Assembly: GCA_046563655.1 (NCBI GenBank)
Contig: CM102283.1
Location: forward strand, 2,356,001-2,420,000
Reading direction: 5' to 3'
DNA from: Yuukianura sp. NJ FZ-2021
Taxonomy: Eukaryota
DNA length: 64,000 bases
How positions within the stretch are numbered: position 1 is the stretch's first letter; every line of letters begins with the position of its first letter. Under the pieces are notes generated by a model. The model was not told the DNA's origin and did not search any database. It saw only the letters and a program-made list of their open reading frames with translations. Shown piece after piece: positions 1 through 40,478 of this stretch. Both the position numbers and the translations under genes were made by a program.

Positions 1-21
1 TTTTGTTTTGGCAGTTAAGGT

Positions 22-1243
22 ATGCCTGTCCATTACTCGGAAGAGCAGCGCCTTTGCATAATTAATCTTCGGTTGGAGTACAAAGATGAAACCAGTACCG
101 AGCTCATGCACAAATACAATCAAAATCCTATCTCGCAAAATCGACCTATGGAGCATCCAAAAGATGTGAACCGAATTCTTAAACGATTCTCTGAACTGGG
201 TAACACTAAAAACCGTCGAAAATCTGGAAGACCAAAAACAGCGACAGACGAAAACTCGGCAATAGGGATTCTTGGGGCTTTTGCGGCTGATCCTCATATT
301 TCAACCAACCAAGTTGCTCGTGATATGGGTGTTTCGCAAACGTCTGTTATGAAGGTGAAAAATCAGTACAACTGGAAGTCCTACAAACCTAGAGTCCATC
401 AACTCCTAAAATTTACGGACTATCCTGACAGAGCCTGGTTTGCAAGAATTTGGCTTCCAATGCTAAACGGAATACCTGACTATGCGAAAAACATCGTCTT
501 CACCGACGAAGCAACTGTAAAACTGGACGGAACTGTTAATCGGCAAAACTATAGATACTGCTCGGATACGAATCCGCATTGGAATGTCCCAGGTTAGACT
601 TTTAAAAAAAGGTGACTTAAAAAGGAATAGTTGTGTTTTGCAAAAAAAATCCCCTCCATAACTAATTAGTGAAAACTATGGTGGGGTATTGATGCCATGA
701 TTTTTTCTTCTGATTTTAGTTAAAACTCAATCGGCCGGAAAAGTGAACCTGTGGGTTGGTCTTTTTGGTGACGAGGTGATTGGACCAATATATTTCAACG
801 GGAATTTGACGGGACAAATGTACCTGACCATGCTACAACAACAAATTGTGCCTGCAATTTTGGCTTCAGCAACACGTCAAAACATTCCACATGCTGACAT
901 CATTTACCAACAGGACGGTTGTGGGCCGCATTTTTCATTAATTGTACGAAACTACCTAGATCAGACTTTTCCCCAAAGGTGGATTGGACGTGCCGGTTGG
1001 TTTCATTGGCCAGCTCGTAGCCCAGATTTTTCGCCACTTGATTATTTTGCGTTTGGGACAATGAGAGGGAATATTTTTTTACCGCCAAGACCTGCCACTG
1101 CGTTGGACTTAATGCGACGAATTGACGATTTTTTTCATGTGCACGTTACGCCTGAAAAACTCAGAAATGTAAGAGACGATTTCCGTAAACGTTTACAACT
1201 TTGTCTTCAGGAAAATGGGAGTCATTTCGAACATTTAAAATAA
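22..1243 (+). mobile_element. Tc1/mariner-superfamily transposase, DD41D (rosa/Visitor-type), two exons, ORF intact (364 aa)
   Basis: Exon 22-592, GT-AG intron 593-719 and exon 720-1243 splice in frame (..NPHWNVP-VKTQSAGKVNLW..). HTH-like N-terminus with GRPK, FTDEA (D1), QQDG (D2), WPARSPDFSPLDY (D3), 41 residues between D2 and D3. 5' TIR is outside the window; candidate 3' ends CACTGTA at about 1519 or 1822. Confidence 0.9.
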
Positions 1244-1520
1244 TGTGCTTGCTACCCCTCCATATTCTGCATATTTTTTCCATTTCCATGTGTTTCTTGG
1301 TCAAATGTCAATGTAAAGCCGATTACTGTTGTTTACAATTTGTTATTTTAAGGCAATAAATTCACCTTTACACTATCCGTAAAGCTTAATTAATAATTAA
1401 TATTTCAAAACTAATGTTTTAATACAACTTCTGGTAGGCGCAACACTCCACTGAATCTAACTTTCCGACAGAATGAACGAGTATTTGGGTTGGGGTAAGG
1501 TGTAGTGGCCGTCACTGTAT

Positions 1521-1692
1521 CCGCAGAGTGTAAGCATCCGTGATTTTTAGTGGCTACAACGGCTGGTGGCTACTCGGTGGCTACTCTACGTCAACTTACG
1601 TAGCCGCTTTATGTTTGGCAAAAGGGGTAAAATTTCAGTTGCCACAGCCCTTATTGTAGTGACTAAAACAGCGGGATGCCTACACTGTGCGG
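1521..1692. mobile_element. Short MITE-like element with ~38-bp imperfect terminal inverted repeats
   Basis: ccgcagagtgtaagcatcc...tttagtggctacaa at 1521 mirrors ttgtagtgactaaaa...ggatgcctacactgtgcgg ending 1692; no clear TSD. Confidence 0.55.
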
Positions 1693-1947
1693 TTCCAATG
1701 ACGGTCGTTGATCCTTACGGTGACCAGTATTTCCGAACCGAGAGGGGGTTTTGTTCCGAGAAATGGAGGAGTGGCTGAGATTAAGCTCATTTGCATGGCC
1801 AGAACATAAAACTATCACTGTATCCCGCTCTTAGTAGCAACTAAATCTCAGAAGCTGAACCGTGTGACCCAAAAACAAACTACACCCGGTTTTTTCTTTA
1901 CCTGAACCGGAAGTTACTTACTAAATATTTCGTCGTTGGGATCAGCG

Positions 1948-4476
1948 ATGACAACGTACAAGGCTATGACAATCGCTGGCAGCGATAGTGGAGGGTAAGA
2001 TAAGGATTTACAAATAATTCATGTAAACAAAACAATTGATAAAAATCAAAATGTTAATAAATTCATTCGTGTTACCTTGTGTAACCGGGTACAGAAATGG
2101 AGGCAGAGTTGGACAAAAAGTGTGATGAGATTTTCTGTATGACGAAATGAGAACGTTGCGTGGGTCACCAGCAATAATGGTGACATTGTCACCGGTGAAA
2201 TGTTTGGAGTTAACAAGTGCTCCAATACTATCAATTAGAAGTTATCCTGCGTAGTTTAGTTAGTAGTTGATTCATGATATGATGCTCACGAGTCACGATT
2301 CTTTTTGTTTGTGACCCCTTGACATTTAGCGGAGCCGGTATTCAAGCTGATCTGAAGACGTTCACATGCTTGGAAGTATTTGGAACGTCAGTCATCACTT
2401 CCGTTACGGCGCAAAATACTGCCACGGTTGATGGAATCCATCCAATTCCTGGTCCATTTGTTAGTCAACAAATGGCTTCTGTCTTGAGTGACATCGGAGC
2501 CAATGCAATCAAAACCGGTAATGGCCAAACTCCTGCTGAATTTTTATGATAATCTAACGGAATAATTTTATTCTTTTGTCGTTTTCTGAAACAGGAATGT
2601 TATGCAACGCTGAAATTATTGTCAACGTTGGCCAAACGCTACAGAAATTTTATTCACCGCTCCCTGGTCAGCCCATTCCGAACTTCACGATTGATCCAGT
2701 AATGATATCATCAACTGGAGCTCAACTTCTGGAAACGTCCGCCATAGAGGCTCTGATCACCCACCTTCTTCCGATTTGTCATATTCTGACTCCGAATGTA
2801 CCCGAAGCACTCAAGATCTTAAGCGAAGGAGGGAAACTTCGAAATCAAGGGGTGCCAGAAACAATTGCGACAATCGAGGACATGAAAATGGCGGCCAAGG
2901 CTCTCGCCTTTTTTGGTCCGAAAATTGTGGTGCTCAAGGGTGGCCACCTTCCATTTAACATGCAAACGAAAGATGCTGCTCCAGCATGTGTTGTGGACGA
3001 CCATTCAGTACATGCTGAAACTCCGTTCGAAGTAGTTGACATCGTCTATGATTCTGAAAGCGACACATTTACGGAATTCCGAAAGCAGTTTCTTCGTGTC
3101 AACAACACACATGGGACAGGGTGTACGCTGAGTGCTGCCATTACTGCTTACTTGGCGCGAGAACTTAAACGTCCGTTTTCATACTTTGAAATTTTTTAAA
3201 ATTTAAAAAAAGTACGTGTGTAAAAAAAAATTCGTTTTTAGCTTTGGATGCAATCCAGAAGGCACTACGTTATGTCCACTCAGCAATTGAAACTGGATTT
3301 GCTGTCGGAAAAGGAAGCAGACAACCGCTTAATCACTTTCACGGAATAGTGCCCCGGGCACTGAGTCTGTAAGAACCAATTAGCGTTCAGCTATCAATAC
3401 GATCCGCATTTCCACAATTTTGAAAAAAGAAACGTTTCTAATCTTCAAAATTTTGAATTTTAGACCATCCAACTCCAACCCACATCCCCTGTTGAATCAC
3501 TTACTGGATTCCTGTCGATCAGACTGGGACAAGTATACTAAACATGCGTTCGTCAAAGGCATTGGAGATGGAACGCTACCCAGAGAATGTTTTATTCACT
3601 ACATCATCCAGGACTACTTTTTTCTGGAGAATTATGCCAGGGCGTATGCTCTTGCAGCTCACAAGGCCAAGAGTCTGGAAGAGTCAAAGAGCTACGCTGA
3701 CACTGTCATTGCAATCGCTCATGAAACAAAGTTACACAAGGAGGTAAACTACTTTTCTTGTGTTCATTTTTGAAGCGCTATCCATATTTTTAAAAAACTG
3801 ATGAAATTTTTGAAAAAAGACAGAATTTTCTGCAATCCGATTTTTTTGATTTTTTTTCTGTAGATGTGTGCCAAATGGGGTGTGTCCTTTGAGCAAATTT
3901 TAGCAACTCCAGAAAGTATGGCCAATGCTGCTTATACTCGTTACGTTCTGGATGTTGGTAAGATCATGTTAATTTGTTTCACATTTTCTTGATTAATCAA
4001 GAGTTGTCGAATTAGTCTTTGACGAAAGTTGTGATTATACTTGGAAGTATTTTTATGCAGGAGCCATCGGAGATATACTGGACTTGAATTTGGCAATGGC
4101 CCCTTGTTCCTTTGGTTACGGAGAGATCGGGACAGAGTTGATGAAGGATCCCAGGACACTTAAGGGTCCGGAGAACCCTTACTGGGAGTGGATTCAAAAT
4201 TACGCTGGAAAAGACTATCAGGATGCTATGTTCAGATCAATCGGTAATCACGAACAGAAAGTTTTCATTTTCACAAATTTCGAAAAAGTTTGTTTAGAAA
4301 CGGATTTTTACTTTAATTAAGTGTAATTTACATTAATTGGTTTAACAGAATTAATAGAGAGGATGGCAGCCACTGTGCAACCTTCGCTGCATCGCTTGGC
4401 GGAAATGGAGAAAATATTCCGTCTGGCAACGAAGCTGGAAATTGCATTTTGGGACATGGGCATGACTCGGACGTAA
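1948..4476 (+). CDS. THI20-like: HMP/HMP-phosphate kinase (ThiD) fused to thiaminase II (TenA); fungal THI20/THI21-like architecture, 8 exons, 540 aa
   Basis: Exons 1948-1994, 2330-2517, 2595-3170, 3242-3368, 3464-3743, 3864-3957, 4061-4243, 4349-4476 (all GT-AG, 1623 nt). ThiD motifs [53 protein letters not shown]; TenA motifs YIIQDYFFL, YTRYVLD, APCSFGYGEIG, NPYWEWIQNY, LEIAFWDM. Confidence 0.93.
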
Positions 4477-4827
4477 CCGATGGTAACCTAGGCTACGTCG
4501 ACCCACCAGGTCAATGCCCTAGTCAGTTGTGTTAGTAGTAAGAGACGAGTGACCTTTGACCTTCCATGAGTTAGAGACTAAAAAGACTATAGCTTTTAGT
4601 TTAAAAGTCTGAAAAGAGTTATATTTATAACTGTACGGAAGAAGTTCTTTAGAGGAAACAATAAAGTTGTGTTTTAATTTATAGGAATTTTTTGTAGTAA
4701 TAAATTTTGTATAAGTGTTTATTTTTTATAATTACAAAATTTTAAAAATACTATTGGAAATTCTAAAGTTTAAAAAAAATGACTAGAAAATGTAAACTGC
4801 ATGCAACTTAACTAACAAGTTAAGGGT

Positions 4828-6372
4828 TTAGACAACTTCGGCTTCCGAGTTTTCTTCCGCCGGAGGTCTCCGAGTTGTGAAGAAGCAAAACGTCAACTAA
4901 AATTTACAATTCACATGTCAGGTTTTTTTCAAAAAAAATTTTGACTCAAAATTTTGAAATTTTTTCTTACAGAGCATTCCAGAATTGATAGGCAAAATGT
5001 TGCTGCTGCTTGGATGGTGTCTAGTATAACAAAACCTCGTCCAATTACTTGGAGGTGAATCAATGGCAGCGATGTTACCAAGAATACGCTGGAAACTGCA
5101 AGTGAGATCGTCACCGGAACATAACTTACTTCCTCTATCTGAAACATTAAGGTTAATACATTCAATATAAATATTCAAACTGTATATTTTAATATAAATA
5201 TAATATTTTATTCACTGAAGTGCAGCGGAGAATTGAGAAGATGACACACAGCGTAACGAAGTTCAGCGTAAAATACGAAAATGGCAAAAACAGAATTGGT
5301 TTTGGCTCGTCTTTTGGAAATTTCCAAAATTTTCCCAAAACAAATGCTAACCAAAATGTGGTGAGACTGGCTTGGTAAATACAAAGAAGCACCTTTTGTC
5401 AAAATTTGAAAAAAAAAAAAACACAACTTTTTTTTAAATATTTAATTTTCAAAAACCAAATCTTCAAATTAGCTAACCCGCAGAATGTGGATGGAATGAC
5501 TTGTGTTTTTCCATTTTCGTAGTTTTTGCATGAAAAATGGTAGAAATAGCATCATGGTCCTAACGAGAACATAAATTTAGTCTTTATATTTTAATATAAT
5601 TTTGCATATTTGAATCTATTTACTATGTATTTTATTTACGACAAAATTCCAGTATGTAAAAGTAAAGCATTGAGTAGATCGTCACCTCCATTCCAAAACC
5701 AGGTTGTATCTGTTCTGTGCAAGAAAAAAAGGAAAAGCAGAATTGAAAAATATTAATTTCAATTTTTTTTAAATTTCAGTTTGAAAACTAACTTACAAAA
5801 TTGTACAAACTAATGAGACGGAAGCAACACTGAAATTTAGAATAATCTGGAAACGAATGAGATTGGAGTAAAAACGACGCTGGACATTTCGTTTTTGGAA
5901 AAAATCTTCAAAAGTTATTGGACTTGTGCGATACTTAGCAAAAGAGCTAATACTTCCCTCACATTCTGGAGCATCCTGTAAGTTATAAATATATAAAATA
6001 CTATAACATAATTAAGCATATAATATAATTGATATAACTTCTTACCGCACCAACTGTTACTATCGTTGTTAAGGTCAATGGACCACATTGAACTTTTCGT
6101 TTTTGGATATCTCCGTCGCTGTCTGTGGTCGTTGAGCAAGATTCAAGTTCGTGTTTCAAACACTCCGACATTTTTGAAATCTCTGTATTCTTCAATTTCA
6201 AATTAGTTTTTCCAAATTTTTCTTTTGAAAAATTGTAATTAGACACACAACAAGCACTGAATTTGTTCCGAACTGCAGAGATCATTGAATCTTCTTGTTT
6301 TTTGGACAAAGGCGTGAAGGCGTCTCGTTTTTCTGAGTCACGGCTTCTAATAGATAATTTTTTCCTTGGCAA
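4828..6372 (-). CDS. Uncharacterised multipass membrane protein, multi-exon; 5' structure uncertain
   Basis: Hydrophobic exons joined by GT-AG introns (RTMMLFLPFF.., VLLCIYQASLTTFWLAFV.., IEEVSYVPVTISLAVSS.., LTFCFFTTRRPPAEENSEAEVV*); no family recognised. Confidence 0.55.
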
Positions 6373-6744
6373 AGTTGCAAAAATCGCAGGAAGTGTGTGA
6401 CTTGTTGTGTGTGTAGGCGTACATTTAACATCACAGTATCATAAAAACATCCAAATTCGCACAAGTTTTTTCAAATCTCAATGAGTTTGATGAAGCTTTT
6501 TGCTCTGAAAGCTTACCTTGTCACTTTTTCACACTTAAAAAAAATATCGGAGAAATTTGCGAATCTCTGAGCGAGGAAAACTCGAGTGAGTATATGAAAC
6601 TCACGGATCTGAAAGTCACATGGCAAAAGTGCTCATTTTTTTTAACTGGCAGAGTACTGAAAGAACTATTTTTAACAAGTTCACCGTTTAATTTATTCTA
6701 AGTTTTTTGGAATTCAAATTTTGCACACGAAAAGGAAGTACAAA

Positions 6745-7962
6745 ATGGCAGCGTCTTTTACTAAAAACTCTACCGGAAATGTTATTCCAACGACCGCAGA
6801 TGAAGTTACAGCCGATTGGTTTACAAGTGTCACTGGCATTGAAATTCCCGAGTCAAAAACTTTCAAAATTTTGAAAAATCCAAATGCTTCTGTTGGAAAT
6901 CTAAGTCAAATGGTTCGTGTCGGATTTTCAAGTGAAGATCAAGGTCAAGGTCACGATCGGAGCTTCTTTATCAAACTTCGTTTGGTTCCTACAAATGACT
7001 TTGAGCGCGGAGTATTGGAAGTCATCATTGTAGAAAACATGGATGGTCGTGAAGTATTTTTCTACCAAACGCTGAAATCCGAGCTGGAGCGACTCGTCCC
7101 CGAGTTAAGTCAGTTTTTCGTACCGTGTCGCTGCGCTGTCAAGAACGACACTGGATCGGTCGTTATTCTAGAAGATATGGGTCCACAGGGATACTGGATG
7201 CCTGGATTCGCTTCTGGACTTGCTCCAACATTCTACCATCGCAGCATTCACTTCATTGCACAGTTCCATTTTGCTGGTGAGCTGCTTCAGCTGGAACACG
7301 GTCGCGGTGCCAACGGTTTGCTGACATCCTTCCCACTACTAAATACTTGGCACGTTCCACGGTCCGACAGCACGGTGTCGCTGGTTAAACAGTTTCCAAG
7401 CCTTGATTGGTTCTCGGTTGGACTGGAATTTATGGCCGCCAATCTTCTGAAACCGTCGGATGCCGAGCTTTTCCGAGCGCTGATTCCACATTCCGAGAAG
7501 ATTATTCGCTGGATCACCGAAGCTGGCTCGAAAAATCCAACGATTATCCATGATGACCTTTGGCCTTACAACTTCTTGTGTCATGACAACGGGGGGATCA
7601 AGGTCATCGATTGGCAACTTGTGGGATTTACTGATCCAGCATACGAACTTGTCTATTTCTTTATGTCGAGTCTACCCGAAGACAAGATAGATTCAGCCGA
7701 AATTCGCCGAGGACTGGAAACCTATTACAAAATTAAACAAGAGTTGTACAATAGGAAGCAATTGAAAATGGGAAGATCGCTGGAAGAATTTTTAGAATTT
7801 TTTGAGACTTACGGACTCTGTTATGGATTTTTAATTATAACGATGAGTGCTGATTCCATCTATGCACAAGAGTCCTACAGGCCTAAACTATCCAAAATAT
7901 ATTCCTACTTTTGTGATGCACAAATACCTCAACGGTTATTAGCTCAACACGCAAACAATTAA
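6745..7962 (+). CDS. Ecdysteroid kinase-like (EcKL / choline-kinase-like) protein, single exon, 405 aa
   Basis: SFFIK, REVFFY, VILEDM, IAQFH, Brenner motif HDDLWPYNFL, IDWQ, PAYELVYF. Confidence 0.85.
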   Translation: MAASFTKNSTGNVIPTTADEVTADWFTSVTGIEIPESKTFKILKNPNASVGNLSQMVRVGFSSEDQGQGHDRSFFIKLRLVPTNDFERGVLEVIIVENMDGREVFFYQTLKSELERLVPELSQFFVPCRCAVKNDTGSVVILEDMGPQGYWMPGFASGLAPTFYHRSIHFIAQFHFAGELLQLEHGRGANGLLTSFPLLNTWHVPRSDSTVSLVKQFPSLDWFSVGLEFMAANLLKPSDAELFRALIPHSEKIIRWITEAGSKNPTIIHDDLWPYNFLCHDNGGIKVIDWQLVGFTDPAYELVYFFMSSLPEDKIDSAEIRRGLETYYKIKQELYNRKQLKMGRSLEEFLEFFETYGLCYGFLIITMSADSIYAQESYRPKLSKIYSYFCDAQIPQRLLAQHANN

Positions 7963-8252
7963 ATTTTGTTTATTCAATTTAAGGTTAGATTAATCAAATC
8001 TAACCTGTAATTCTACAATCTAAATAAATTGTGTAACTAACTACATCTCGAAATCGTGTCAATCCAAAACCAAATTAATCCGACTATCACCCTAACGTTA
8101 AGTATAAAAATTTGATCAATTTGTTACACTTTCATAAAAAATTATTTCATAAGAGAAAATATATGGACATTTAATGTACTTTAATTAATTAAACTTAATT
8201 TAATTTAGACACATCTCTATACCAAACACCAATTGTATTCGTAGGAGGTGAA

Positions 8253-8361
8253 ATGGTCAAAAACAATTTCATCAAAAGTGAAAAGGTCAACAATTACAAA
8301 CAGGTTTGACTTTGTTTTATGTTTGACCTTCTCACTTTTTGACCAAATTGTTTTTGACCAT
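8253..8361. repeat. Foldback inverted repeat (MITE-like) between convergent EcKL and Bcl-2 3' ends
   Basis: atggtcaaaaacaattt..aaaagtgaaaaggtcaa pairs with ttgaccttctcactttt..aaattgtttttgaccat. Confidence 0.6.
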
Positions 8362-8768
8362 ATTACATGGAACCATTGTATTCGTGTATCATACACACCA
8401 TGTGACTTCCACTTCAAAAAAAAAACATTGGCTAAAGCTTTAGCTTTGACAAATAAGGTGTTAATGCAATTTGAAAAAAATAACTAATTAATTTTTTTAA
8501 TCAAACTATTCTAGTTTTAATTGGTTAGGCTAACTTAAGTTGTTCCCATTTTCCCATGTGAGGTTATAATTCATTAGCTAACTACGTAGGTAAATTAATG
8601 TTTTGTGTTCCTTTTAATATAAAGTGAGATCATTCACAGAATTCGAGCTAACTGGGTTAGGCAGAGGCAGCGAACAGGCGGTTTATGGTATTGGGTGTAT
8701 TTGGACTTTGAACAAGTTTGACCTTTGACCTTGACCTCGGATCAGGGTCAAGGTGGCTGATCAGCGTT

Positions 8769-10559
8769 TCAGCGCAGGAGAGAGGAAATGTACATGGTAG
8801 CAGCTAGACCGACACACAGACCAGACCATAAAATGGCTCTTCTCAACTGCGGCATGTCGTCACTTTGCCGTGTTTCCGGTCCTGGAAATTGTTCGACTAG
8901 TCCCATCTACCAAAATCCAAATTAAAAAAAAAGTCATTTCTGAAAATTCAACTAACTTCTAAAAAAAACTCCAAAATTTTGAAGTTGTGTTTTGCTCACC
9001 CATCCGCCATTTTCTTTTACAAAGTCTATCACATGCTTCGTGAGGTAAGAAGCTAAGAATCCCGTAATATCTCCAACTCGACTGTCGTTCTAAAAATAGC
9101 CAAAATGAGTCAAAATTAATCACAAATCAAAATTTCAAAGTACATAAACTGACCTTGTTAAAATTCTGGACTGTAAGATAGTACTTTGCAACGATAATCT
9201 TTTGTTTATGCTAGGCTTTGTTTATGTTAGGTTATGTTTATGTTTAGGATGACTCACTTGACCGTATTCTTGGGAAAGGCGAACGGCAAAGGCAAAGAGG
9301 GCTATGATCCGACCCCACGTTATTCTTAGTTGACTTGGTTCGTTTGAATTGGCCTGAAAATTAAAAAATAGAACGATGATTAATGTCAATGTGACACTCA
9401 GCATTAATTAAACAGCGATTCTCAATAGTTAGATTGAAATTGAACAAATCAATGGACGGTGTCTTTTACAGTTTAAAACTGTTAAAGTAATCGGAGCTAT
9501 TAATGGAAGCAACTAAGTTTTATGTTCTCATTAAGTTTCAGTTCCTTCCCACGACAACTTGGCGTCACTTGTATGACTAAAAGTTATAAAAGTTAAGAGA
9601 ATGACAACGAAAAACGTGACAAAAGAACAAAGATTAGTTTATCCTAAAGTGACATTAAGTTAAACATTACGTCATCATCCTAATCAGTGTCATTCATCAA
9701 CCGCAAAGTACTTTTGGTATGACTCACTGTTAATTTAATTCCATTCATCACAAAAACGTTCAATTTACAAACCGATTATAGTAAACCTACGGTAACTTAC
9801 AACTTAAGGTGAGCGTTGTTAACTAAATCGACCAACACCAAAGCGTAAGGTAAGTTAGACTATGAATTTTCCAGACAATCCGCGACGACAGAAAAACGTC
9901 AGAAAAACGAATTATGCCAAAAATCGTTTCTGGCTTATCTACGGCGGAAACTTCCTGGAAAATTCCAGTGATGACCAGGACTAAAAGACCAAACGGGTTT
10001 AGACAGAAATAAAGCAAAAAAAGGAAAAACCAAGGTACTACAGTTAGTAAAACTAGACAATTTATTACCATTTACCTCAAATAACTCATTGGCAACACAA
10101 GTAAATTCATGGTAATGATGTACTTGTATCCGATTGACCATTCCAGTAAAGAGGATGACATGTTTCTGGAGAATGTCTCTGACACAGGCACACAGTGCTT
10201 GTAATACGACGTCCCTCTGGTCATCTGGACATTTGTTATCAAATGCAACCTCTTGGATAACCCACAGTGCTAACCTCTGACCTAGAATTACAAAGATATC
10301 CAGAATTACGATCCAATTGACAACAATATACCATGTCCTTCATCATCATCATCTTCATCACTAAGCTATAGCACATTGCAAATTATGATTTGTTTTTGTT
10401 ATGTGATGAAAATGCACCTCGAATTATTGTCTGATCAACTTCGTTGTCACTTCTGCGTGACTCCAGTCGACTGTCCACTTCGTCCACGACACCAGCAACA
10501 GCTGCGGCACAAGAATTGTGCCTGGCAGTCTCCGTCGTCGTACTTGATTGCGACCCCAT
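8769..10559 (-). CDS. Bcl-2 family apoptosis regulator; 5' exons uncertain
   Basis: BH1-like VANELFE..ITWGRIIALFAF, BH2-like FVKENGGW, C-terminal membrane anchor AILWSGLCVGLAATMYISSLLR*; GT-AG introns. Confidence 0.85.
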
Positions 10560-26374: not shown

Positions 26375-29300
26375 ATGGACAGTGCGGAAGACCAGGAAAA
26401 ATTGTTAGAACAAAATCAAAATGGAGGAGAAGAGGAAGAAGAAGAGGAGCCAGATAGTTCAGAAGCTAGGAAAATAGCAGCGGATTTGGAACAAAATGGT
26501 ATTTTCAAAATTTTGAAAAATTTTCAAGACGTTTTTAAAAAAAAAACGTAGTCATGTCATCTAAAAAATGATTGCGGGAGAAAGTGGAAAAGAGATTATC
26601 TAGACCAAATTGAAAGATTTTTTTGAAACTTTTTTTTTGCAACTTATTTAGTCGTAGGTTGAACAAGGTTGGAAGATTTGTGAAATTTTGAAATCAAAAT
26701 TGAAATTTTCAATTTGGAAAGTTTTTTGATTTTGGTTTTTGTTGTAGAAGGATCTTCTGAAATGGAAGACGATGACCTGATGGCAGGCACGGGTACTGTT
26801 GACCCCTTGACCTTGCTTGAAACGCATGACCAATCAGGGACGTTTCCGAAATCGAATGTTGTAATTCGGCTTTCCCCGACAATTCACCCAGACGCAGTAA
26901 CGTGGCTAATTGAAAAATTAACCGGGAAAAAACAAGATGGCGGAGCAGAACTCTTGGTTCGAGCGGAACCTTTCTCGGGAAAATCCAAAGAGGTTTTGGC
27001 ATTTGAAAAATCGGAACTTTGAAATTTTAAGTATAACAAGAGTTTGACCTTTGACTCTTTGTTGCAGAGTTTGACCCTTCATGTAACAGCATCCAAGCTA
27101 AAGTTTTTAGAATGTGCAGAGTATATGGAACTGAAAAAATTGGATTCTCGCGGGGTTTTGCGTGAATTCAATGTTGGTGACCTTGATGACTTTCTACATG
27201 GGTCAATCGGATTGGACAATTTACTCACCGCTGCCGAAAAACAACTGATTGTTACTCATGAATTAGACAATGTACGCGTTCTAGCTCCAGAACGTACTCT
27301 ACCTGGGTAAGATATAATCTATTCTATACTAATGAGAAGTTACATGCGAGGGTAATTCCGGCTGAGAAATTCACTAAAGTGTAACTTCCTTATTTATGAC
27401 AAATTGAAATTTTCCAAAAAATTGTTTTTTGAAAACACCATCACACCATCTAACTTTCCACAGAAGGCATTTGGAAAAAGTGACGATTAGGCTGAGAAAT
27501 TCACTAAAGTGTAACTTCCTTATTTATGACAAATTGAAATTTTCCAAAAAATTGTTTTTTGAAAACACCATCACACCATCTAACTTTCCACAGAAGGCAT
27601 TTGGAAAAAGTGACGATTAGGCTGAGAAATTCACTAAAGTGTAACTTCCTTATTTATGACAAATTGAAATTTTCCAAAAAATTGTTTTTTGAAAACACCA
27701 TCACACCATCTAACTTTCCACAGAAGGCATTTGGAAAAAGTGACGATTAGGCTGAGAAATTCACTAAAGTGTAACTTCCTTAGTTGTGACAAATTGAAAT
27801 TTTCCAAAATATTGTTTTTTGAAAACTCCATCACACCTTCTAATTTTCTACAGTAGCACTTTTGGAAAAAAGTCATGGGTTGAAAAAACTTTCAAAATTT
27901 AATGGGTATCGGACAAAGCTTCAGCAAGCATACTATGAATGCTGGTAAAATCTAATGTAGATTAATCAATCTAACAATCTAAATTATTTATTTTGCAGAT
28001 ATCCCAACACGATTCTTCACCGAGGTCAATCAATCTGTAAGTCCAATTTTGCCAAATGGATTAATTTTTTATAGAACAATAACCGCAATTGACTCAAATC
28101 AAAAAATTGACCTTGACCTTTGACCCCAAACTAACTTTTTCATACAGTTAACATCTACCAACAAGAGGGTCTCGTCGTAGATGTTTTCCCGCTTCACGAC
28201 GAACCTGAAGTAGAATCTCTAGGAAAACAGTGGTACTACGCTCTGTTCAAAGCACAGCCTTTCGGTAATCGTGTATCATAAATTGCTTCATTGATATTTT
28301 GAAAACTGTAATTTTTTCAAAAAATATTTTATTTTTTATTTTCAGACGAAATTCGACAATACTTTGGAGATGCCATAGCCCTGTACTTTTCATTTCTGGG
28401 TTTCTACACCGTGTCTCTCGTTGCCCCAGCCATTCTCGGAATAGTTCAATTCTTCTTATCAGAAACAACAACCGGAAACAGCGCCATCTTCTTCTGCATT
28501 TTCAATTTAATCTGGGTCACAATCACTCAAGAACTATGGAAACGGAAGTGTTCTGAGCTGGCCTACGCCTGGGGCACTTTGAGAATGACCCAGTGGGGGG
28601 AGGACCCCCGGGCTAACTACAGGGGGGTCATGACCATTGACCCGGTCACTGGTCGCTACCAACCGTACTCCCCCTGGTGGAAAACGGCCATCAAGGTCTA
28701 CTGTGTCTCTCTACCTATAGTGATTCTGTCGATCTGCGCAGGCGCATATGTCATGTTGTACTCAATTTGGCTGGAGGAGTACTTGACAGAAGCGAAAACA
28801 CGACACGGGAGTCACGTGGCAGGGTACATGACGATGCTGCCAAGTATCGGATACTCGGCACTAGTATCGTATGTTAACAACGGTTATCACAAAGTGGCTA
28901 CGTTCTTGACTGAATGGGGTAAGTTTTCTAGAAAAAAGTACCGTATTTCCTCGCCTATAATACGCGTATTATCTGAGAAACGAGAAAAAAAAGTGGAACA
29001 AAGAAATTCACTTCACTAAAAACTTAGGAAACCGGACGAAAAAGTGTATTTTTAGTTTTAAACTTTAGGTTTACGTCGAATTGGAGTATTTTTCAGAATT
29101 TCCGAGGTGCTCTTATACGCAAAAGTGCGTGTTATAGGCGAGGAGATAAAGTATTTTTCAAATGGTGACAAAAATTGAGAAATTGAATTGCGAAATTTCG
29201 ATTTTTTTTTATAGAAAATCACCGCACGCAGTCGCAGTTTGAGCGCCACCGTGTTTCGAAGCTTGTGATTTTCGAATTCGTGCATACTTTTATGTCCATG

Positions 29301-30740
29301 TTCTACTTGGCCTTCTACATTCAAGACATGGAGATGCTCAAGAATCAAGTCACGGTTATGTTGTTGGTCAATCAATTCATCAATCACTTCAAAGAAGCTC
29401 TTTTGCCATTGGTCATTCGCAGAGGGTTCAGCATCGTAAGTCCAGAATTTGTCAAAAACTGAAAATTTTCCAACATAAATTTTAAAATTTTTCAAAATTT
29501 TGAACTTTTTTTTTGAATTTAGGCAAAACAACACATGGCTGAAAAGTTTCCCAACCTGATGTACACGTTGAGGCTGGTGGATCGACCTGACGCTGCCAAA
29601 GCTGAGTTAAGCGAAAGTGAAAAAGCGGCAGCCAACACCGTGGCGTCGCTTGGACTGCAGTTTTTGGAACCAGACGATCCGCGTATCCAGGAAACGGCAC
29701 AGCAAGTTGGCATGGACGAATACGAGGTCAGGAAAATAACCTATATTTTGAAAAAAAAAGTTTGAAATTTTAAAATTTTGAATTTTTGAAAACTAGGGTA
29801 CCTTTGACGACTACTTGGAGATGTTCATTCAGTTTGGTTACGTTTACCTGTTCTCAGCTGTGTCTCCACTGGCTGCTTTCTATGCCATTGTCAACAACGT
29901 TATTGAAATCCGCGCAGACGCTTTCAAACTCTGCAAGGTCACGCAACGCCCTCTGGCTAAACGGGTCAAAGATATCGGAGCATGGCAGGTATGAAACAAA
30001 CGTCAAAATTTTTTTACCCAAGTCAAAATGAAAAGTTTTTGACCCAAGTCAAAGTCGAAACCTTTTGAGTCACGTCAAAGTCTAAACTTTTTGACCCACG
30101 CCAAACTCAAAACGTTTTGATCCAAGTCGAAGTCGAAACTTTTTGCCCCAGTCAAAATCCAACGGTTTTGATTCAAGTCAAGAGTTTTCACCAAGTCAAA
30201 ACCGTTTCAAAAATAAAAGATTTTGACCCGAATGAAATTGACGTTGCTTTGCCTTGACTTTTCAGGCGGCCTTTGAACTGATAGGAGTGATGGCCGTGAC
30301 GACGAACTGTGCTCTTCTGTGCTTGTCTCCAAATCTTCGTTCATACGGATCGTCAATGACTGCAGCCGAATGGCTTCTACTTTTTGTGATTATCGAACAC
30401 GTTCTGATTGGAGTCAAACTCGGAATTGCCATTCTCATCCCCGATATTCCTTCATGGGTCAAAATGGCTTTGGCTTGTGTTGAGTACCGATCACGACAAG
30501 CACTCAAGAACGAGGTAAAACTCCTGCGAAATTAAACACAACATATACAGATATAATAATACATTATAATATTAATATTAATCATATTAATATATTTAGC
30601 AAACATTTAAATCAAGACGAAACCTCACCAGACGCTTCAAAACGATTCACGGAGTGGCGACAAAGAAAGACGCAGGAGGTAGCACAGTACAACGCAGGAA
30701 ACCGAAAAAACAGAGTAATCAAATCAATCCAACTGCATAA
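26375..30740 (+). CDS. ANO10: Anoctamin-10 (TMEM16K)-like scramblase/channel
   Basis: [85 protein letters not shown]; multi-exon. Confidence 0.9.
27318..27945 (+). mobile_element. Non-autonomous Helitron-like element in an ANO10 intron
   Basis: Begins A|TCTATTCTATACTAAT and ends CTGG|T (CTRR); the related copy at 34891 retains the GGGCGAAGCCC subterminal hairpin. Confidence 0.6.
27361..27875. repeat. 130-bp tandem repeat: three identical units plus a diverged fourth
   Basis: Unit gctgagaaattcactaaagtgtaacttcc.. starts at 27361, 27491, 27621 and 27751. Confidence 0.95.
28941..29151. mobile_element. pogo/Tc2-type MITE in an ANO10 intron
   Basis: TA|ccgtatttcctcgcctataa ... ttataggcgaggagataaag|TA: inverted termini with TA duplication. 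Confidence 0.7.
30005..30200. repeat. Degenerate ~30-bp tandem repeat (ttttgacccaagtcaaagtc) in an ANO10 intron
   Basis: Six to seven imperfect copies visible. Confidence 0.6.
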
Positions 30741-31064: not shown

Positions 31065-33423
31065 TCATGGTGCAGGAGCAATATTTCTCACTCCAGTCGA
31101 AGGCTGGACGAGTATCACCGTGCACGGAATTCCTGCTGCCGTGTAGAGCGTCACCGTCTGCGGCATCTGTTGAGCCAGCATCGCTTCCGTGATGGGCATC
31201 GGTGGTTCAGGACGCAGTGGAGCGGGATCGACCGTCCAGAGAGCAATGTACTGCGGTTGATTCGTCATTGGATTGCCAAACGGCTCAGTTTGACCCAAGA
31301 TTGCTCGTTGCTGAGATGCTGATGCTGACGAAGTGGAGTCAACGCTTGGAGAAGCTGCTACGTCCCCATTGATTGCACGTAATTGTGCCGCGGCAGTTGA
31401 AACGACCACTGGACTTGCAGTTGTTGCTGCTGAAGCTGATGCTGCCGTTGATGGGGGAACCCCGAGAGTAATGACCGGTCCTGATGATACTGCCGACGCG
31501 GTGGCAGTATTGATTTGTGCTTCCACACTGGAACTGGTGGCAGTCGCAGAAGGTTTTGAGTTTGGACCAGGGTTTTGTGGAGGTGCAGGGAAGACGATTC
31601 GACTCGACCCGGGAATGACACCACCAATTCCACGGTTTTTGTGGAGCTGAAGTACTGGATTGTAGTGATTGACAATAATGTGGATGAAGCAGTCAAGAAT
31701 GGCAATTTCTGGTAAATTGCAGAACGGGCAGCATATTCCAACGGTGCCGCGGGAGTGGTACATTTCCATGTGTTGATACAAATTGCCATAACAGGAGAAC
31801 ACGTTGAGACAGATGATACACCGGCTCCTTTTAGCCTTCTTGTAGCAATGTTGTGTTTCATTGATAGTGTCATGTGCCTTTTGACAAATCCCGCAGTACA
31901 AAGTTCCTTGAGCAAGTTCCAGCATTGTCTCTGGAGAAGCTTTTTGTTCCTTACTACAAACTCGACAGTGCAGAGTAAGCTGAATAGAGTCATCAAATTT
32001 CTTTAAGCAAGAGCCACAGCGCATGTCCGGTTCCGGAATGATCTTGGAAGGCATTTCCGGGTGCGTCAACGTCAGATGCCGACGAAGTAGAACGGCCGAA
32101 TCCCACGACCGCTCGCAGAGTCCGCAACCCAATGGAACTTTAGCTTTCTTGCCCGAAGAGATTTTGACTGAAGCGTTTGCCTTTGTTCGGATTAGTTTCT
32201 GCTTAGCCACTCTTGCTCGTGTGTTTACTGGTGATTCTTGCTCGTGTGATTGACTGGAAGCCCCAGGATTTTGTTCAGCGTCGTCGTTAGAATCCCTCCA
32301 ATTCTCGATCAGTGGCGGAGGAGCGTCAGCATCAGTACCATTCCCAGGTTCAGCAGTGTGAGTTGTAGACGCCTGATCTACACTTGTATCTTCGATGCTT
32401 TTATCTTCTTCGATAGCCTTATCCTCTTCGATAGCTTGTCCCGCGTCATCCGAGTCGCCTTCTTTCGTCTTTTCTTTGTTCTGTGGAATCTCAGTATCTT
32501 GACTTTCCCTGTCTCCACTGCCAACATCTGGATCTTCATGTCCAACTTCAACTTCCGCAGTATTAGATGTACTGGATGCTGCCGAAGTAGTAGCAGTGGT
32601 GTAAACAGCATCTATTTTTGGTGTTCCAGTTCCAGTCTTATTAGCATGAGACCGAGCAAGAGCCATCGCTTCAACTCTAATTTCACTTCTGGGTGAGCCC
32701 GGACAAGCATCTAAATCAAATATTGAAAATAAAACACATGATGAGTACAAAATGATCACCGATTGATAATTTTTGTTTAAAAATTATTTTCTTTGTTTTT
32801 GGTTATTTACCAAGCACATCCTCGGTTCCCGTCTTCTCTTCCTCTTTCAAACGCTCCACTAAAACACCCGAAGAATCACGAATCTCTCCATCTGAAATGA
32901 TTAAAACATGAAACACTTCGTATTAATATTAACAACTTCAAACAAACATATCTTAGCGGTACGTTTCACACTTTCAACATGATCCTGGACCTCCTGCAGT
33001 GCCCGGAGAAAATTTCGTTGAAGACGAAGGAGTTGGCCTGCCAGTGGCCGAGGTTTTCTGATGTCTGCTTCAATCAATTCAATCAATTGATCCAAATTGT
33101 CCTTTTCCATTGTACTGTCGTTCATAACTGAGTACAGAGATTACAATAGTTAGGTAATACTGAATAGTGTGGTTTAAGATAGATTTTATAATCAGCAATT
33201 AATTACCTAAGCCCAATTCTTGCAGATTCTGAGTGACTTCGTTCCAACTCCATTTCTCATAAGCGACGTTGAGATCAGGATTTTGTTTGAGTCTGGTTTT
33301 CAGCGGTTCCGGCAGCGGTTTGCACTCGTATGGGCCCACCACAGGAAACTTAACTTTCTTATTAGTCTCCCTTTCATCTCCACTACTTTCATCTTCATCT
33401 TCCGATTCATACGGGCGCTTCAT
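31065..33423 (-). CDS. C2H2 zinc-finger protein, short paralog (copy A), 4 coding exons
   Basis: MKRPYESEDE.. start; fingers CGLC..HLTLTH, CIIC..HMEMYH, CPFC..HIIVNH; splices in frame into ORF 31065-32759. Confidence 0.75.
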
Positions 33424-34980: not shown

Positions 34981-35585
34981 ATCTCCCAACACGATTCTTC
35001 ACCGAGTCAATCAATCTGTAAGTCCAATTATAAAAAAGATTAATTTTTTTACTTCAACCAATTAGTTTCAAAAAAAAAAGTTTCAAAACTTTTACAAGAT
35101 CCAAATGTAAGTTTAAAACTTTTTGCCCCAAGTCAAATTCCGTTTTGACTCAAATAGTCAAGAGTTTTGGCCTAACCGTTTCAATCAAAGTCAAAGATTT
35201 TGACCCGAATGAAATTGACGTTGTTCTGACTAGACTTTTTAGGCGGCTTTTGAACTATTAATAATCGGAGTGATGGCCGTGACGGCGAATTGTGCTCTTC
35301 TTTCCTATCCAAATCTTCGAGCTTATAGATCGTCAATGACTGCTGCCGAATGGCTTCTGCTTTTTGTGATTATCGAGCATGTTCGGATTGGAATCAAACT
35401 ACGGAATGATAATTATATTGATATATTTAGCAACCATTTAAATCACGACGAAACATCACTAGACGCTTCAAAACGATTCACAGAGTGGCGGCAAGGAAAG
35501 ACGTTGGAAGTATTATTATTACAGTCCTTTAGTACAACGCAGGAAACCGAAAAAACAGAGTAACCAAATCAATCCAACCACATTA
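34981..35585 (+). pseudogene. Degenerate duplicated ANO10 exon fragments
   Basis: Copies of ANO10 27999-28036 (1-nt deletion), 30266-30420 and 30600-30740, with indels and large internal deletions. Confidence 0.85.
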
Positions 35586-36026: not shown

Positions 36027-39000
36027 TCACGGCGCAGGAGCAATATTTCTCACTCCAGTCGAAGGCTGGACGAGTCTCACCGTGCGCTGAAACCCTGCTG
36101 CCGTGTTGAACGTCACCGTCTGTGTCTGTGGCCTCTGTTGAGCCAGCATTGCTACCGTAACAGGTCTCAGTTGTCCAGGACGCACTTGAGCGGGATTGAC
36201 CGTACGAAGAGCAATGTGCTGCGGTTGATTCGTCATTGGATTGACAAACCTCACAGTCTGGCCCAGGATTGGTCTTTGCTGAGATGCGGATGCTGATGAA
36301 GTGGAGATAATTCTTGGACCAGCCACGACACCATTGACATTCGGAGATCTCTGTCGACTCTGCCCCGTCGAAGTTGTTGGAACGACCAATCGCTGTCCAG
36401 TATTTCCCAACTGAACCAATCTGTGCTGCGACGGTGCCGGAACGATTCTTGGCAGGGGCAAAACACCGTTGGGGCGGAGTCCTTGAGTCAATGATGGTGG
36501 AATGACTAGTTGCCGGGGCAACTGAATGATTCGGTTTTGTGGAGTTGACATGATTCGTGGGAACGACATTTGGGCAGTTCCAGCTCGTACTTGTTGCATC
36601 ACTGACGTTGGAACGACGAATCTCCGCACGGTGTCACCTTGAGCATGACTGAGCCGAAGTAGTCTTTGACCAGGAGCCAGTACAATGCTTGAAGCCGTTC
36701 CATCTCCATTGACTGCACGAGCTTGTGCCGCGGCAGTTGAAACGACCACTCGACTTGCAGTTGCTGCTGCTGATGAAGATGATGCCGTTGCCGGGGGAAC
36801 CCTGAGAGTAATGACCGGTCCAGATGATGATACTGCCGTCGTGGTAGCAGCATTTCTACGTCGAGCAGCATTAATTTGTGCTTGCACACTGGAACTGGTG
36901 GCTGTCGCGGAAGGTCTTGCTCGTGGAACAGCATTTTGTGGCGGTGAAGGAATGACGATTCGACTTGAGCCAAAAATGACACCATCAATCCCACGGTTTT
37001 TGTGGAGCTGAAGTACTGGATTGTAGTGATTGTCAATAATGTGGATGAAGCAGTCACGAATGGCAATTTCGGGCAGATCGCAGAACGGGCAGCATATTCC
37101 AACGGTGCTGCGGAAGTGGTAAGTTTTCATGTGATGAAAAAAGTTGCCACGAGAGAGAACCACGTTGAGACAGATGATACACCGGATCATTTGAGCATTC
37201 GTGTAGCAATCTTGGGTTTCATTGATAGTATCATGCGCCCTTTGACAAATCTCGCAGTACAAAGTTCCTTGAGCAAGCTCCAGCATTGTCTCCGGAGAAG
37301 CTTTTCGTGTCGTACAAACTTGACAGTGCAGAGTAAGGTGAATAGAGTCATCAAATTTGGTCAAACACGAGCCACAGCGCATGTCCGGTTCCAGAAGGAT
37401 TCTAGAAGCGATTTCCTTGTGCATGAGCGTCAGATGCTGACGAAGTCCAACGGCCGAATCACATGACCGCTCGCAGAGTCCGCAAACCAGTGGAACTTCA
37501 GCTTTCTTGCCCGAAGCTATTTTGACTGGAGTAAAGGCAAAGTCGGCACGTTGATTTGGGCAGCATCCGAGACGATGCTCCGAAGTATCCTTCTTGGTCA
37601 GTAGTTGGTCGCAGGCTTTACATCGATACCATTCCTTGATAGTATTCGGTTTTACCGGTGGTGTTTGTTTTGGTGACTCAACTGCTGCCAAATATTCTTG
37701 TGGAACAGACTCTACTCGACCAACTCGACCGCTGGAGGCAGGAATTTTTCTGGAGTTTTGTTCCGAGAGACTCTTCATCAAAATATTGTGTTCAGAGCCA
37801 AGATGATTTCTGTAGAGTTGAAGTCCATCGTACGGAAATTCTTCTTCGCAGATTGGACAGACGACAAAGTAGGAAGCACCAATCGCCTTTTGAGCGGGAA
37901 ATTCCAGTCGGTGTTTCAAATCTCCCATGATTGCTACGCTGTCTGCCTTTGCTCGGATTAGTTTCTGCTTAGCAGCTCTTGCTCTTGTGATTGCTGGAGA
38001 TTCAAAGCTGACATTGTCTGGATCCACTTCTGGAGTGACAACGATTGTCTCTGGAGCCATCATGACCACGCCTCCAGCAGTACTGACGATCTGAGGTACA
38101 TCGGGATCGAAGTCCTTGTTGTCACCAACTTCTTCTTGGCCATCTTCCTCATCTGCCATCTCCTCGTCTTCATTCGGATCTTCAAAAATATTTTTGGCAA
38201 AGTTAATTGGAGCTGCAGTGGGACGTGCACTGGACACCCCAGGATTATTTTCAGCGTCGTCGTCCGAATCGCTGCAATCTTCGATCAGTGGCGGGAGTGG
38301 GCCAGCAACAGTACCATTCACCGTTTCAGCCGTTGGAGTTGTAGACGCCTTATCTCCACTTTTATCTTCGATGCTTTTATCTTCTTCGATAGTCTTATCC
38401 TCTTCCATAGGTTGTCCCGCGTCATCTGAGTCGCCTTCTTTCGTCTTTTCCTTGTCCGCTGGAATCTCAGAATCTTGACTTTCCCTGTCTCCACTGCCAG
38501 CATCTGAATCTTCATGCCCAACTTCAACTTCCATAGTATTGGAAGTACTGGATGCTGCTGAAGTAGTAGCAGTGGTGTAAACAGCATCAATTTTTGGTGT
38601 TCCAGTTTTGACCATATTAGCATGAGACCGAGCAATAGCCATCGCCGCAGCTCTAATTTCGCTTCTGGGTGAGTTGCGTGTGACTCCTGGAATTGGGTAC
38701 GTGGCACAATTCTTGAGTTGAGAAGCAGTAAGAGCTGAAGTCGGTATTGGTCGAAGTACTGGAAGACTGCCAGTAGTTTGACGGCGGATGATATTGGCAC
38801 CGGCTGGTTGTTGAACAAGAAGGTAGGTTCCCGGAGTGTTGGAAGGATAAGCATGAGTTTGAGTGTGTCCCGTTTTTGAGAGAATGCTAGGTCGGTTTTG
38901 AACGGAAGAGCAAATGGGAATTCCTTGAATTGGAGTCAAGATCTGACTTTGATTGGGCACGTGACGGTTACTGACGTGAGTAGCTCGAAACTTCTTTGCA

Positions 39001-40478
39001 GGATTTGGAAGTTGTGAGGCAAGAGGAGTCAAGCGACCCCTTGCGATTGGTTGAAAAACGTCAGCTAATGACTGGACGCTTGTGATTTGTGGTGTATCAG
39101 CTTCACAAATGACGACATCGTCGTTCGAAATGTCAACGTTCCAGGTCGGACCGAAAGCTGTTGGCGAAGGAGGTTCCGGATCTTCATCATCGTCGTCATC
39201 TTCTTCCGGTTCCGGTAAATCTGAAACCAAATTCAAAGTTTTAGTCCAACCGTTAATTTGACAGTTTAAAACAATTCAATGCCCACCTTTTCCAATGCAC
39301 TGCTTGGATTTTGGACAAATGGATACATGGTTGATGTCCAAGTCTGATTTTCCATGCTGACAGTTTTTGTCTTTGCATTGAATCAGTATATTTCGCCGGT
39401 CCTTGAAAGCTCGAAGTGTTTTTCTCTTCCCGCCTAAATTCAACTGCACGTCTACAATTTCGTGATCGTCGGAAAATCGTTCAACCACGTTCTTGTCCAG
39501 TCCATGTCCTTCCGGATTCTCTTTTAGCATCTTCAGCGTTAAGGGATTCTCGGCCTAAAAACAAAAAAGATAAAAAATTAAAACCTAAGTATATCTTTGA
39601 ATTTAGGGGCCGTTTTTTTGCGAAGTACCTCGTCCATAGCTTTGCTATTTATAGAATGTCCTAACGATTTAGCAGCATCACGGAAACTTTGACTGAGTTG
39701 AAGAACGAACGGCACTGAGTAGTCAATTCTTCGTAGTCCATGAGTGACGTCTTCATTGGAAAGACAAAGATCTAAATACAAACGTTGAAAATAAAACACG
39801 GAATGAGTTGAAGATGATCACAGATTGATAATTTTTGTTTAAAAATTATATTCTTTGTTTTTGGTTATTTACGAAGCACATCCTGGGTTTCCGTTTTCTC
39901 TTCCTCTTTCAAACGCTCCACTAAAACACCAGACGAATCATCACGAAACTCTCCATCTGAAATGATTAAACCATGAAACACTTTGTATTAATCGTAACAC
40001 TTTAAACAAACATATTTTAGTGGTACTTTTCACACTTTCAACATGATCCTGGGCCATTTTCTGCTGTGATCGGAGAATATCTCGGTGTAGAAGAAGGAGT
40101 GGGGCTGGTAGTGACCGAGGCCCTCTGATGTCTGCTTCAATCAATTGATCCAAATTGTCCTTTTCCATTGTACTGTCGTTCATAGCTGAGTACAGAGATA
40201 ACAATAGTTAGGTAATACTGAATAGTGTGGTTTAAGATAGATTTTATAATTAGCAATTAATTACCTAAGCCCAATTCTTGCAAATTCTGAGTGACTTCGT
40301 TCCAACTCCAATTGTCAGAAGCGACGTTGAGATCTCGACTTTGTTTGAGCCTGGTTTTCAGCGGTTCCGGCAGCGGTTTGAGCTCGTCTGGGACCACCAC
40401 AGGAAACTTAACTTTTTTAGTCTCCCTTTCATCTCCAGTTGTTTCGTCTTCATCTTCCAGTTCATACGGGCGCTTCAT
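36027..40478 (-). CDS. C2H2 zinc-finger protein, long paralog (copy B), 6 coding exons, roughly 1350 aa
   Basis: MKRPYELEDE.. start; exons splice in frame into the 1069-aa ORF; additional fingers CPIC..HLGSEH and CKAC..H; acidic and Q/P/T-rich regions. Confidence 0.8.

Follow-up and report, generated by a model that had tools for sequence, protein, structure and literature searches.

A fungal-type ThiD-TenA fusion gene, probably acquired by horizontal transfer, in a springtail-like hexapod genome

Overview

The stretch of DNA considered here, 64,000 nucleotides of contig CM102283.1 from Yuukianura sp. NJ FZ-2021 (positions 2,356,001 to 2,420,000, hereafter the window), carries at 1948-4476 on the forward strand an eight-exon gene whose product joins a hydroxymethylpyrimidine (HMP) and HMP phosphate (HMP-P) kinase, ThiD, to the thiaminase domain TenA. 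Proteins of this THI20/THI21 type are trifunctional in fungi, acting as HMP kinase, HMP-P kinase, and thiaminase II, whereas animals are textbook thiamine auxotrophs. Protein searches and trees support the acquisition of the gene from a fungus by horizontal transfer. It is quite probable that a THI20-type gene was transferred whole, with its introns, from a fungus that stood at the stem of the Mortierellaceae or close to it, and that its protein still works much as THI20 does.

Structure of the gene

The joined frame of the eight exons comprises 1623 nt and encodes 540 amino acids and a stop, with no internal stop codon. All seven introns begin with GT and end with AG, and the start ATG is the first ATG following an in-frame stop. 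A tblastn search of the window with the Mortierellaceae protein P0019 recovers the same exon blocks, and it finds no second copy of the gene in the window. The eight-exon, 540-residue kinase-TenA gene of the preliminary description is borne out by the joined frame, by Pfam, and by tblastn. Its parts are as follows, all on the forward strand.

1948-1994 (+): exon 1, with the start ATG and the beginning of the Gly-rich motif at the kinase N-terminus; ends in phase 2
1995-2329 (+): intron 1, 335 nt, GC 0.36, GT..AG, phase 2, immediately 5' of the GAGIQ motif
2330-2517 (+): exon 2, N-terminal part of ThiD; Phos_pyr_kin match at 1.7e-22
2518-2594 (+): intron 2, 77 nt, GC 0.31, phase 1, splitting the Gly codon of ..IKTG|ML..
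2595-3170 (+): exon 3, kinase core with the DPVM, TPN..E, KGGH, and GTGC motifs; Phos_pyr_kin match at 7.8e-32
3171-3241 (+): intron 3, 71 nt, GC 0.21, phase 1, ten codons past ..SAA
3242-3368 (+): exon 4, C-terminal part of the kinase and linker; carries G298Q
3464-3743 (+): exon 5, N-terminal part of TenA with the ..QDY.. motif; TENA_THI-4 match at 8e-19
3744-3863 (+): intron 5, between exons 5 and 6
3864-3957 (+): exon 6, middle of TenA (..AYTRY..)
4061-4243 (+): exon 7, with the predicted TenA active-site Cys C453 (..APC..); TENA_THI-4 match at 8.1e-06
4244-4348 (+): intron 7, between exons 7 and 8
4349-4476 (+): exon 8, C-terminal helix of TenA with the conserved Glu E529 (..LEIAFW..); TAA stop
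4660-4704 (+): candidate polyadenylation signals, a pair of AATAAA hexamers that begin 184 and 223 nt past the last base of the stop codon

Domains and conserved residues

Pfam matches on single exons, all exceeding the curated cut-offs, place Phos_pyr_kin (PF08543) in exons 2 and 3 and TENA_THI-4 (PF03070) in exons 5 and 7. The order on the one polypeptide is HMP/HMP-P kinase (ThiD) and then TenA, which agrees with the yeast THI20-type order described earlier, as does the collinearity with fungal fusion proteins reported below. All the marks of the THI20 type are present, namely an N-terminal PF08543 domain, a C-terminal PF03070 domain, the kinase GTGC motif, and the Cys and Glu of TenA_C. 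The GTGC motif comprises G252-T253-G254-C255 and presumably forms the anion hole of the kinase.

Residues 252-255, C453, and E529 fall in columns with a conservation of at least 95% across 90 fungal fusion proteins, and the earlier statement that GTGC, the TenA Cys (APC), and the Glu (LEIAFW) are intact holds. C453 is aligned to the Cys of ..PC.. in chains 3rm5 (yeast THI20) and 3mvu, and E529 to the Glu of ..LE..FW.. in the solved chains 3mvu and 1udd. The active-site residues Cys135 and Glu205 are described for TenA of Bacillus subtilis (PMC10277260). C453 and E529 correspond to these two residues when they are matched by motif rather than through an alignment to the B. subtilis numbering.

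The window protein keeps 89 of the 94 near-invariant columns, defined as those at least 95% identical in the 90 fungal proteins. The kept residues include GTGC 252-255, D112-M115 (DPVM), T144-N146 (TPN), K193-H196 (KGGH), D363 of ..QDY.., C453, and E529. By every sequence criterion examined, the protein belongs with the THI20-type proteins of fungi.

Relationship to fungal proteins

Residues 4-539 of the spliced protein are collinear with Mortierellaceae fusion proteins of 545-556 amino acids, with an identity of 56-61%. Identity to other fungi (Mucorales, chytrids, Basidiobolus, and Dikarya) is at most about 50%. Exon 3, searched as 191 amino acids against longer proteins, has 293 relatives. 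The top 32 are ThiD-TenA fusions of the Mortierellaceae with 50-56% identity and E-values from 5e-52 to 1e-44, and the next match stands at 9e-34. The named matches among the best 120 of the 293 are all fungi, with no animal among them, and a search over proteins of similar length likewise names no animal among its 71 matches at E<=1e-20. Both are word-seeded searches over annotated proteins or called open reading frames (ORFs). Orthologs across animals, which the preliminary description regarded as the sign of vertical inheritance, were not found among these matches.

A representative-protein search gives 4 proteins at E<=1e-30, close relatives being hidden inside its 50% clusters, and a search of the ESM Atlas gives generic ThiD clusters only. 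P0121, a 197-residue ORF on a 14,137-nt JGI metagenome contig, was used as the probe for a metagenome scan, which yields 80 loci of bacterial-type thiD with 33-42% identity, the contig of P0121 itself not being among them.

The maximum-likelihood tree of the full protein comprises 58 rows and was built under LG+C20+F+G4. It unites the window gene with P0121 at 100/96 and this pair with 19 Mortierellaceae at 94/77. The addition of P0037 gives a group supported at 100/99 against all other fungi. The Mortierellaceae form a clade of their own (100/99), and the window gene is their sister, inside Fungi. In quick trees of the single domains (37 rows), the ThiD part (residues 1-300) has a support of 79, and then of 91 when P0037 is included, while the TenA part (residues 318-540) groups the window gene, P0037, and the Mortierellaceae at 98. 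Since the two domain trees agree, the fusion appears to have moved as one piece. Horizontal acquisition, as put forward in the preliminary description, is thus supported by the searches and by the trees of the whole protein and of each domain, which place the gene in Fungi.

P0037 (ENA, 504 amino acids, on a contig of 1,618 nt) is an apparently intron-less ThiD-TenA fusion, and it shows a weak pairing (73) with the window gene in the TenA tree. It may represent a transcript or else another lineage that bears on the donor.

Intron positions and base composition

Fungal intron sites were read from prokaryote-style ORF calls on fungal genomic contigs from the similar-length search. The comparison covers introns 1-3 in the kinase half and counts those fragments whose end or upstream residues were comparable with the annotated protein. 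Eight fragments, P0293-P0300, share 85-97% of their residues with named Mortierellaceae proteins. At the intron 2 site, 7 of the 8 begin at the Met of ..G|ML.., and in P0299 twelve non-homologous residues are followed by GML. At the intron 3 site, all 8 stop matching the annotated protein ten residues past ..SAA, and past this site they have Gly where the annotated protein has Ala. The read-through residues point to phase 1 at both fungal sites. The intron 3 site is common to all 6 Mucorales-like fragments, P0121, and P0292. The intron 1 site, before GAGIQ, is broken alike in the Mucor-like P0303 and P0305 and in P0301, P0123, and P0125, which suggests a shared phase 2. Many fragments begin at a conserved Met (residue 80 or 115 of the window protein), and such a beginning by itself was rejected as a sign of an intron, as the window gene has no intron at Met115.

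At least three of the seven introns thus appear to lie at fungal positions and to be inherited, not gained. Their presence at these positions argues for transfer as intron-bearing genomic DNA and not as a processed transcript. The simplest reading is that genomic DNA moved, that the introns were kept, and that the intron sequences have since turned over.

Base composition, intron size, and intron GC match the host. The introns of the ThiD-TenA gene measure 71-335 nt with a GC of 0.21-0.36, and those of the host anoctamin gene, read approximately, measure 70-842 nt with a GC of 0.19-0.37. GC at third codon positions (GC3) is 0.455 in the ThiD-TenA coding sequence and 0.34-0.52 in 11 ORFs of the window. 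The earlier remark that the introns resemble those of the host is therefore right for size and GC, and it does not extend to position, as at least three of the seven stand at fungal sites. The comparison of intron positions with fungal homologs, proposed as a check, finds introns 2 and 3 matched in the Mortierellaceae and intron 1 in Mucor-like sequences.

Host, linkage, and read depth

The window carries genes for EcKL (ecdysteroid kinase-like), PTPLA, anoctamin, a Na/H exchanger, and an IQSEC-type protein (Sec7 and IQ_SEC7_PH), and likewise WD40 and MIX23 fragments, so the presence of clear metazoan genes on the contig is confirmed. An anoctamin exon shares 61-64% of its residues with three Collembola (Orchesella dallaii, Allacma fusca, and Folsomia candida), as against 46-55% with the named insects among the matches listed. 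As this exon is nearer to Collembola than to insects, the host is, by sequence identity, a hexapod closest to Collembola. One neighbour of the ThiD-TenA gene is the following.

6745-7962 (+): EcKL gene, a native single-exon neighbour; one run contig joins it to the ThiD-TenA gene

The stretch occurs in five public runs, four of which (X1, X2, X3, and X5) were aligned to window positions 1-10000. A Logan contig (public run assembly) of run X1 (record 7) has a length of 6,567 nt and a depth of 33.2. It covers 1819-8359, and with it both the ThiD-TenA gene and EcKL, and the contig that follows in this run has a depth of 33.5. Run X5 comes from another organism and another study. It has four contig pieces of the gene within 2084-4510, at 2084-2463, 2769-3184, and 3836-4510, with letter mismatches of about 1%, 7%, and 8% and an overall identity of about 91-99%. 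Its depth is 3.9-5.6 over the gene and 2.5-5.7 over EcKL and beyond. The ThiD-TenA gene is thus joined to native genes at even depth in X1, and it is present in a second, related host. The break in coverage that would mark a chimera was not found in X1, with which X5 agrees, and the linkage to EcKL is directly seen. Together with GC3 and the introns, this linkage supports the earlier view that the gene has been assimilated into the host.

The variants that separate the exons from the run contigs are 10 synonymous and 6 non-synonymous (n=16), the latter conservative, as counted from 40 listed of 556 differences. The exon 3 piece of the second organism (run X5, 2769-3184) is without gaps. Conservation and variant pattern fit purifying selection, if thinly.

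Contigs of X2 and X3 align to the exons flanking introns 5 and 7 and skip most of these introns. The joints, which skip 3746-3853 and 4246-4346, were rejected as splice junctions, because they end in AA..TT and AT..AA and come from DNA runs. The skipped sequence suggests diverged introns in a second haplotype or in a close relative within the same sample.

Repeats and transposon remains upstream

Two features lie upstream of the gene.

19-1243 (+): transposase-like ORFs of 192 and 180 amino acids, in different frames; HTH_29 match below the Pfam cut-off
1337-1818 (no strand assigned): multi-copy repeat adjoining the gene's 5' flank, with a summed depth of 120-220, compared with about 33 for single-copy sequence

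The run contigs over the element at 19-1243 show internal deletions, with joints at 239-1051 and 497-1340, and the element probably represents the decayed remains of a DNA transposon that exists in a few copies. An inverted-repeat search of window positions 1-2400 gave no terminal repeats of note. The single-copy contig begins at 1819, directly past the repeat.

Proposed origin and function

In fungi, HMP pyrophosphate (HMP-PP) is joined to thiazole by THI6, and amino-HMP is a breakdown product of thiamine. Under the explanation proposed here, a springtail-like hexapod would have acquired a whole THI20-type gene, a ThiD kinase fused to a TenA thiaminase II, from a fungus on the stem of the Mortierellaceae or adjoining it. 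The gene would have arrived as genomic DNA with its introns, of which at least introns 1-3 would keep their fungal positions. It would now lie between native genes, by transposon debris, its composition and intron style having come to match the host's. To judge from its family, the protein most likely keeps the fungal THI20 function. Its TenA half would release HMP from amino-HMP and, slowly, from thiamine, and the ThiD half would convert HMP to HMP-P and then to HMP-PP. As a result, the pyrimidine part of degraded vitamin B1 would be salvaged from a fungal and detrital diet. Thiamine itself would be obtained only if the rest of the genome (e.g., a co-acquired THI6) or a symbiont supplied a thiamine-phosphate synthase and a source of thiazole. 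The enzyme activities, a cytosolic location, and expression are predictions from sequence.

Several points weigh against this explanation or narrow it. The window gene stands outside the sampled Mortierellaceae at a node of only 94/77, which pins no living donor genus. Position 298, in the G.G.G motif encoded by exon 4, is Gly in 90 of 90 fungal proteins and Gln in the window protein (G298Q), so the predicted activity of the kinase half is to be read with caution. Other near-invariant columns are changed by V110T, L191V, L454S, and V494M. Apart from the gene itself, no thiamine-phosphate synthase or other thiamine family was found among the 20 scanned of 56 window ORFs of at least 110 amino acids, and HMP-PP would be a dead end in an animal that has no such synthase. 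The variant count, with its 40 listed differences, is a thin basis. Runs X1-X3 represent one sample, probably the source of the window itself, which leaves X5 as the only independent support, and X5 is shallow and fragmented. None of the five public runs with the gene is an RNA run, and its splicing and expression are predictions. The gene may accordingly be part of a larger acquired pathway, work together with a symbiont, or be kept for thiaminase activity or detoxification alone.

That last possibility can be put more broadly, as retention for another job, with no thiamine made by the animal. The TenA half would then serve alone as a thiaminase II, destroying thiamine analogues or breakdown products or freeing HMP for gut microbes, or the kinase would act on another substrate, such as a B6 vitamer. 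The loss of the invariant Gly from the kinase C-terminal motif agrees with this, as do the lack of ThiE and THI6 among the scanned ORFs and the existence of TenA-only genes in some animals (PMC10277260). Both halves are, however, equally conserved, with kept columns in the kinase (GTGC, DPVM, and KGGH) as well as in TenA, and the fusion is still intact and collinear with the fungal proteins. Such a change of role is considered unlikely. A silent relic, transferred and fixed but unexpressed and with its decay not yet visible, is more doubtful still. It would fit the lack of RNA runs and the repeat and transposon debris directly 5', at the expected place of the promoter. The frame is nevertheless open over eight exons with all seven pairs of splice sites intact, and the 89 kept near-invariant columns, the lean of the visible variants towards synonymous change (10 versus 6, among the 40 listed), and the gapless exon 3 of the second organism all speak against decay. 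The fully host-like composition moreover implies that the gene has been resident for long, time enough for a silent one to have broken.

An assembly chimera or contamination, in which fungal DNA has been joined to springtail DNA, would account for the fact that the closest relatives are all fungi among the matches listed, and there is a repeat at the 5' junction. It is very hard to reconcile with an independently assembled run contig that bridges the gene and EcKL at uniform depth, with a second organism from another study that has the gene at the depth of its neighbours, with host-like GC3 and introns, and with an identity of only 56-61% to any sampled fungus. Equally improbable is vertical inheritance from the common ancestor of animals and fungi, with loss in nearly all other animals and with ancient shared introns. 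Intron 3 is common to the Mortierellaceae and Mucorales and hence old within fungi, as this scenario would have it. The 100/99 branch with the Mortierellaceae, however, excludes chytrids, Mucorales, Dikarya, and Basidiobolus, and other animals are absent among the named matches listed in both protein searches. Vertical descent calls for a place outside all fungi and is disfavoured, as the gene lies inside them.

Transfer of a whole THI20-type gene from the Mortierellaceae stem therefore remains the preferred explanation. A bolder extension of it is tentative and on the unlikely side: the lineage would have rebuilt vitamin B1 salvage or synthesis from fungal genes, with THI6-like and perhaps THI4- or THI5-like genes elsewhere, the transfer would predate the radiation of the living Mortierellaceae, and the fungal introns would have been spliced by an animal ever since.

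Comparison with known systems

Fungal THI20-type proteins: Yeast THI20 (PDB 3rm5) and the Mortierellaceae fusions P0001-P0032 have the same domain order, length, GTGC motif, and TenA_C Cys and Glu as the window protein, and three intron sites are common to the window gene and the fungal genes. In contrast, the window gene stands in an animal genome, has host-like GC3 and introns, has one invariant Gly replaced, and is known here from its sequence alone.

Cyst nematodes: The preliminary description regarded animals as normally lacking ThiD and TenA, a rule with published exceptions in cyst nematodes (PMC4901422) and, for TenA, in aquatic animals (PMC10277260). Globodera rostochiensis and Heterodera glycines have horizontally acquired thiD, thiE, thi4, thiM, and tenA, as described in PMC4901422, which cites Craig et al. 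2009. As in the window host, ThiD and TenA functions have reached an animal through horizontal transfer, and transposons lie near the transferred genes (PMC4901422). The nematode genes are separate, several of them adjacent, and include thiE (PMC4901422), whereas here there is one fused gene of fungal type. No thiE is present among the 20 scanned window ORFs, unlike in the nematode set.

Springtails: Orchesella cincta is described as having 253 genes acquired by horizontal gene transfer (HGT), 30.4% of them of fungal origin (PMC4987106). They resemble the window gene in having a springtail host and a fungal donor, and in being operational enzyme genes linked to native genes (PMC4987106). The functions named for them are carbohydrate metabolism, proteolysis, and redox (PMC4987106), and the words "thiamin" and "vitamin" are absent from the main text of that paper. 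Literature searches turned up no THI20-type gene described from springtails or other arthropods, although supplementary springtail HGT gene lists may contain an ortholog.

Aquatic animals: Stand-alone TenA_C genes of the BtTenA-like kind are described from aquatic invertebrates and freshwater fish (PMC10277260). They resemble the window gene in having a TenA with the active-site Cys. In contrast to its fungal-type fusion, they stand alone, are related to bacterial TenA, and have no kinase (PMC10277260).

What the window gene adds to these known kinds, as far as its sequence can be read, is a donor placed at the stem of one family and the retention of donor intron sites. It would be an unusually clear case of transfer from fungus to animal, with the donor at the stem of one fungal family and a two-domain gene moved whole, and the three surviving donor-type intron positions argue for the uptake of genomic DNA. 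If the gene is functional, the salvage of vitamin B1 precursors, for which cyst nematodes are the only animals described to date, would extend to soil arthropods that eat fungi and detritus. This would bear on the movement of thiamine fragments through soil food webs. A rebuilt B1 route, if true, would mean an animal able to make thiamine from breakdown products in the soil.

Other features of the window

A very high-copy repeat at 8017-8684, just 3' of EcKL, has a summed depth of 460-790 in X1, compared with about 33 in its flanks, and many loose contig ends fall within it, at 8317-8375. Two long single-exon ORFs on the reverse strand, at 31065-32783 (572 amino acids) and 36027-39275 (1082 amino acids), have long near-identical stretches in common, along with Cys/His-rich blocks that resemble zinc fingers. 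The two appear to be tandem paralogs, and the 1082-residue ORF has no Pfam match. A short second match to anoctamin, covering residues 678-776 of P0268 in the C-terminal part, lies at 35246-35481 on the forward strand. The main anoctamin gene (26750-30679) lies 4.6 kb upstream of this match, which may be a duplicated or alternative terminal exon.

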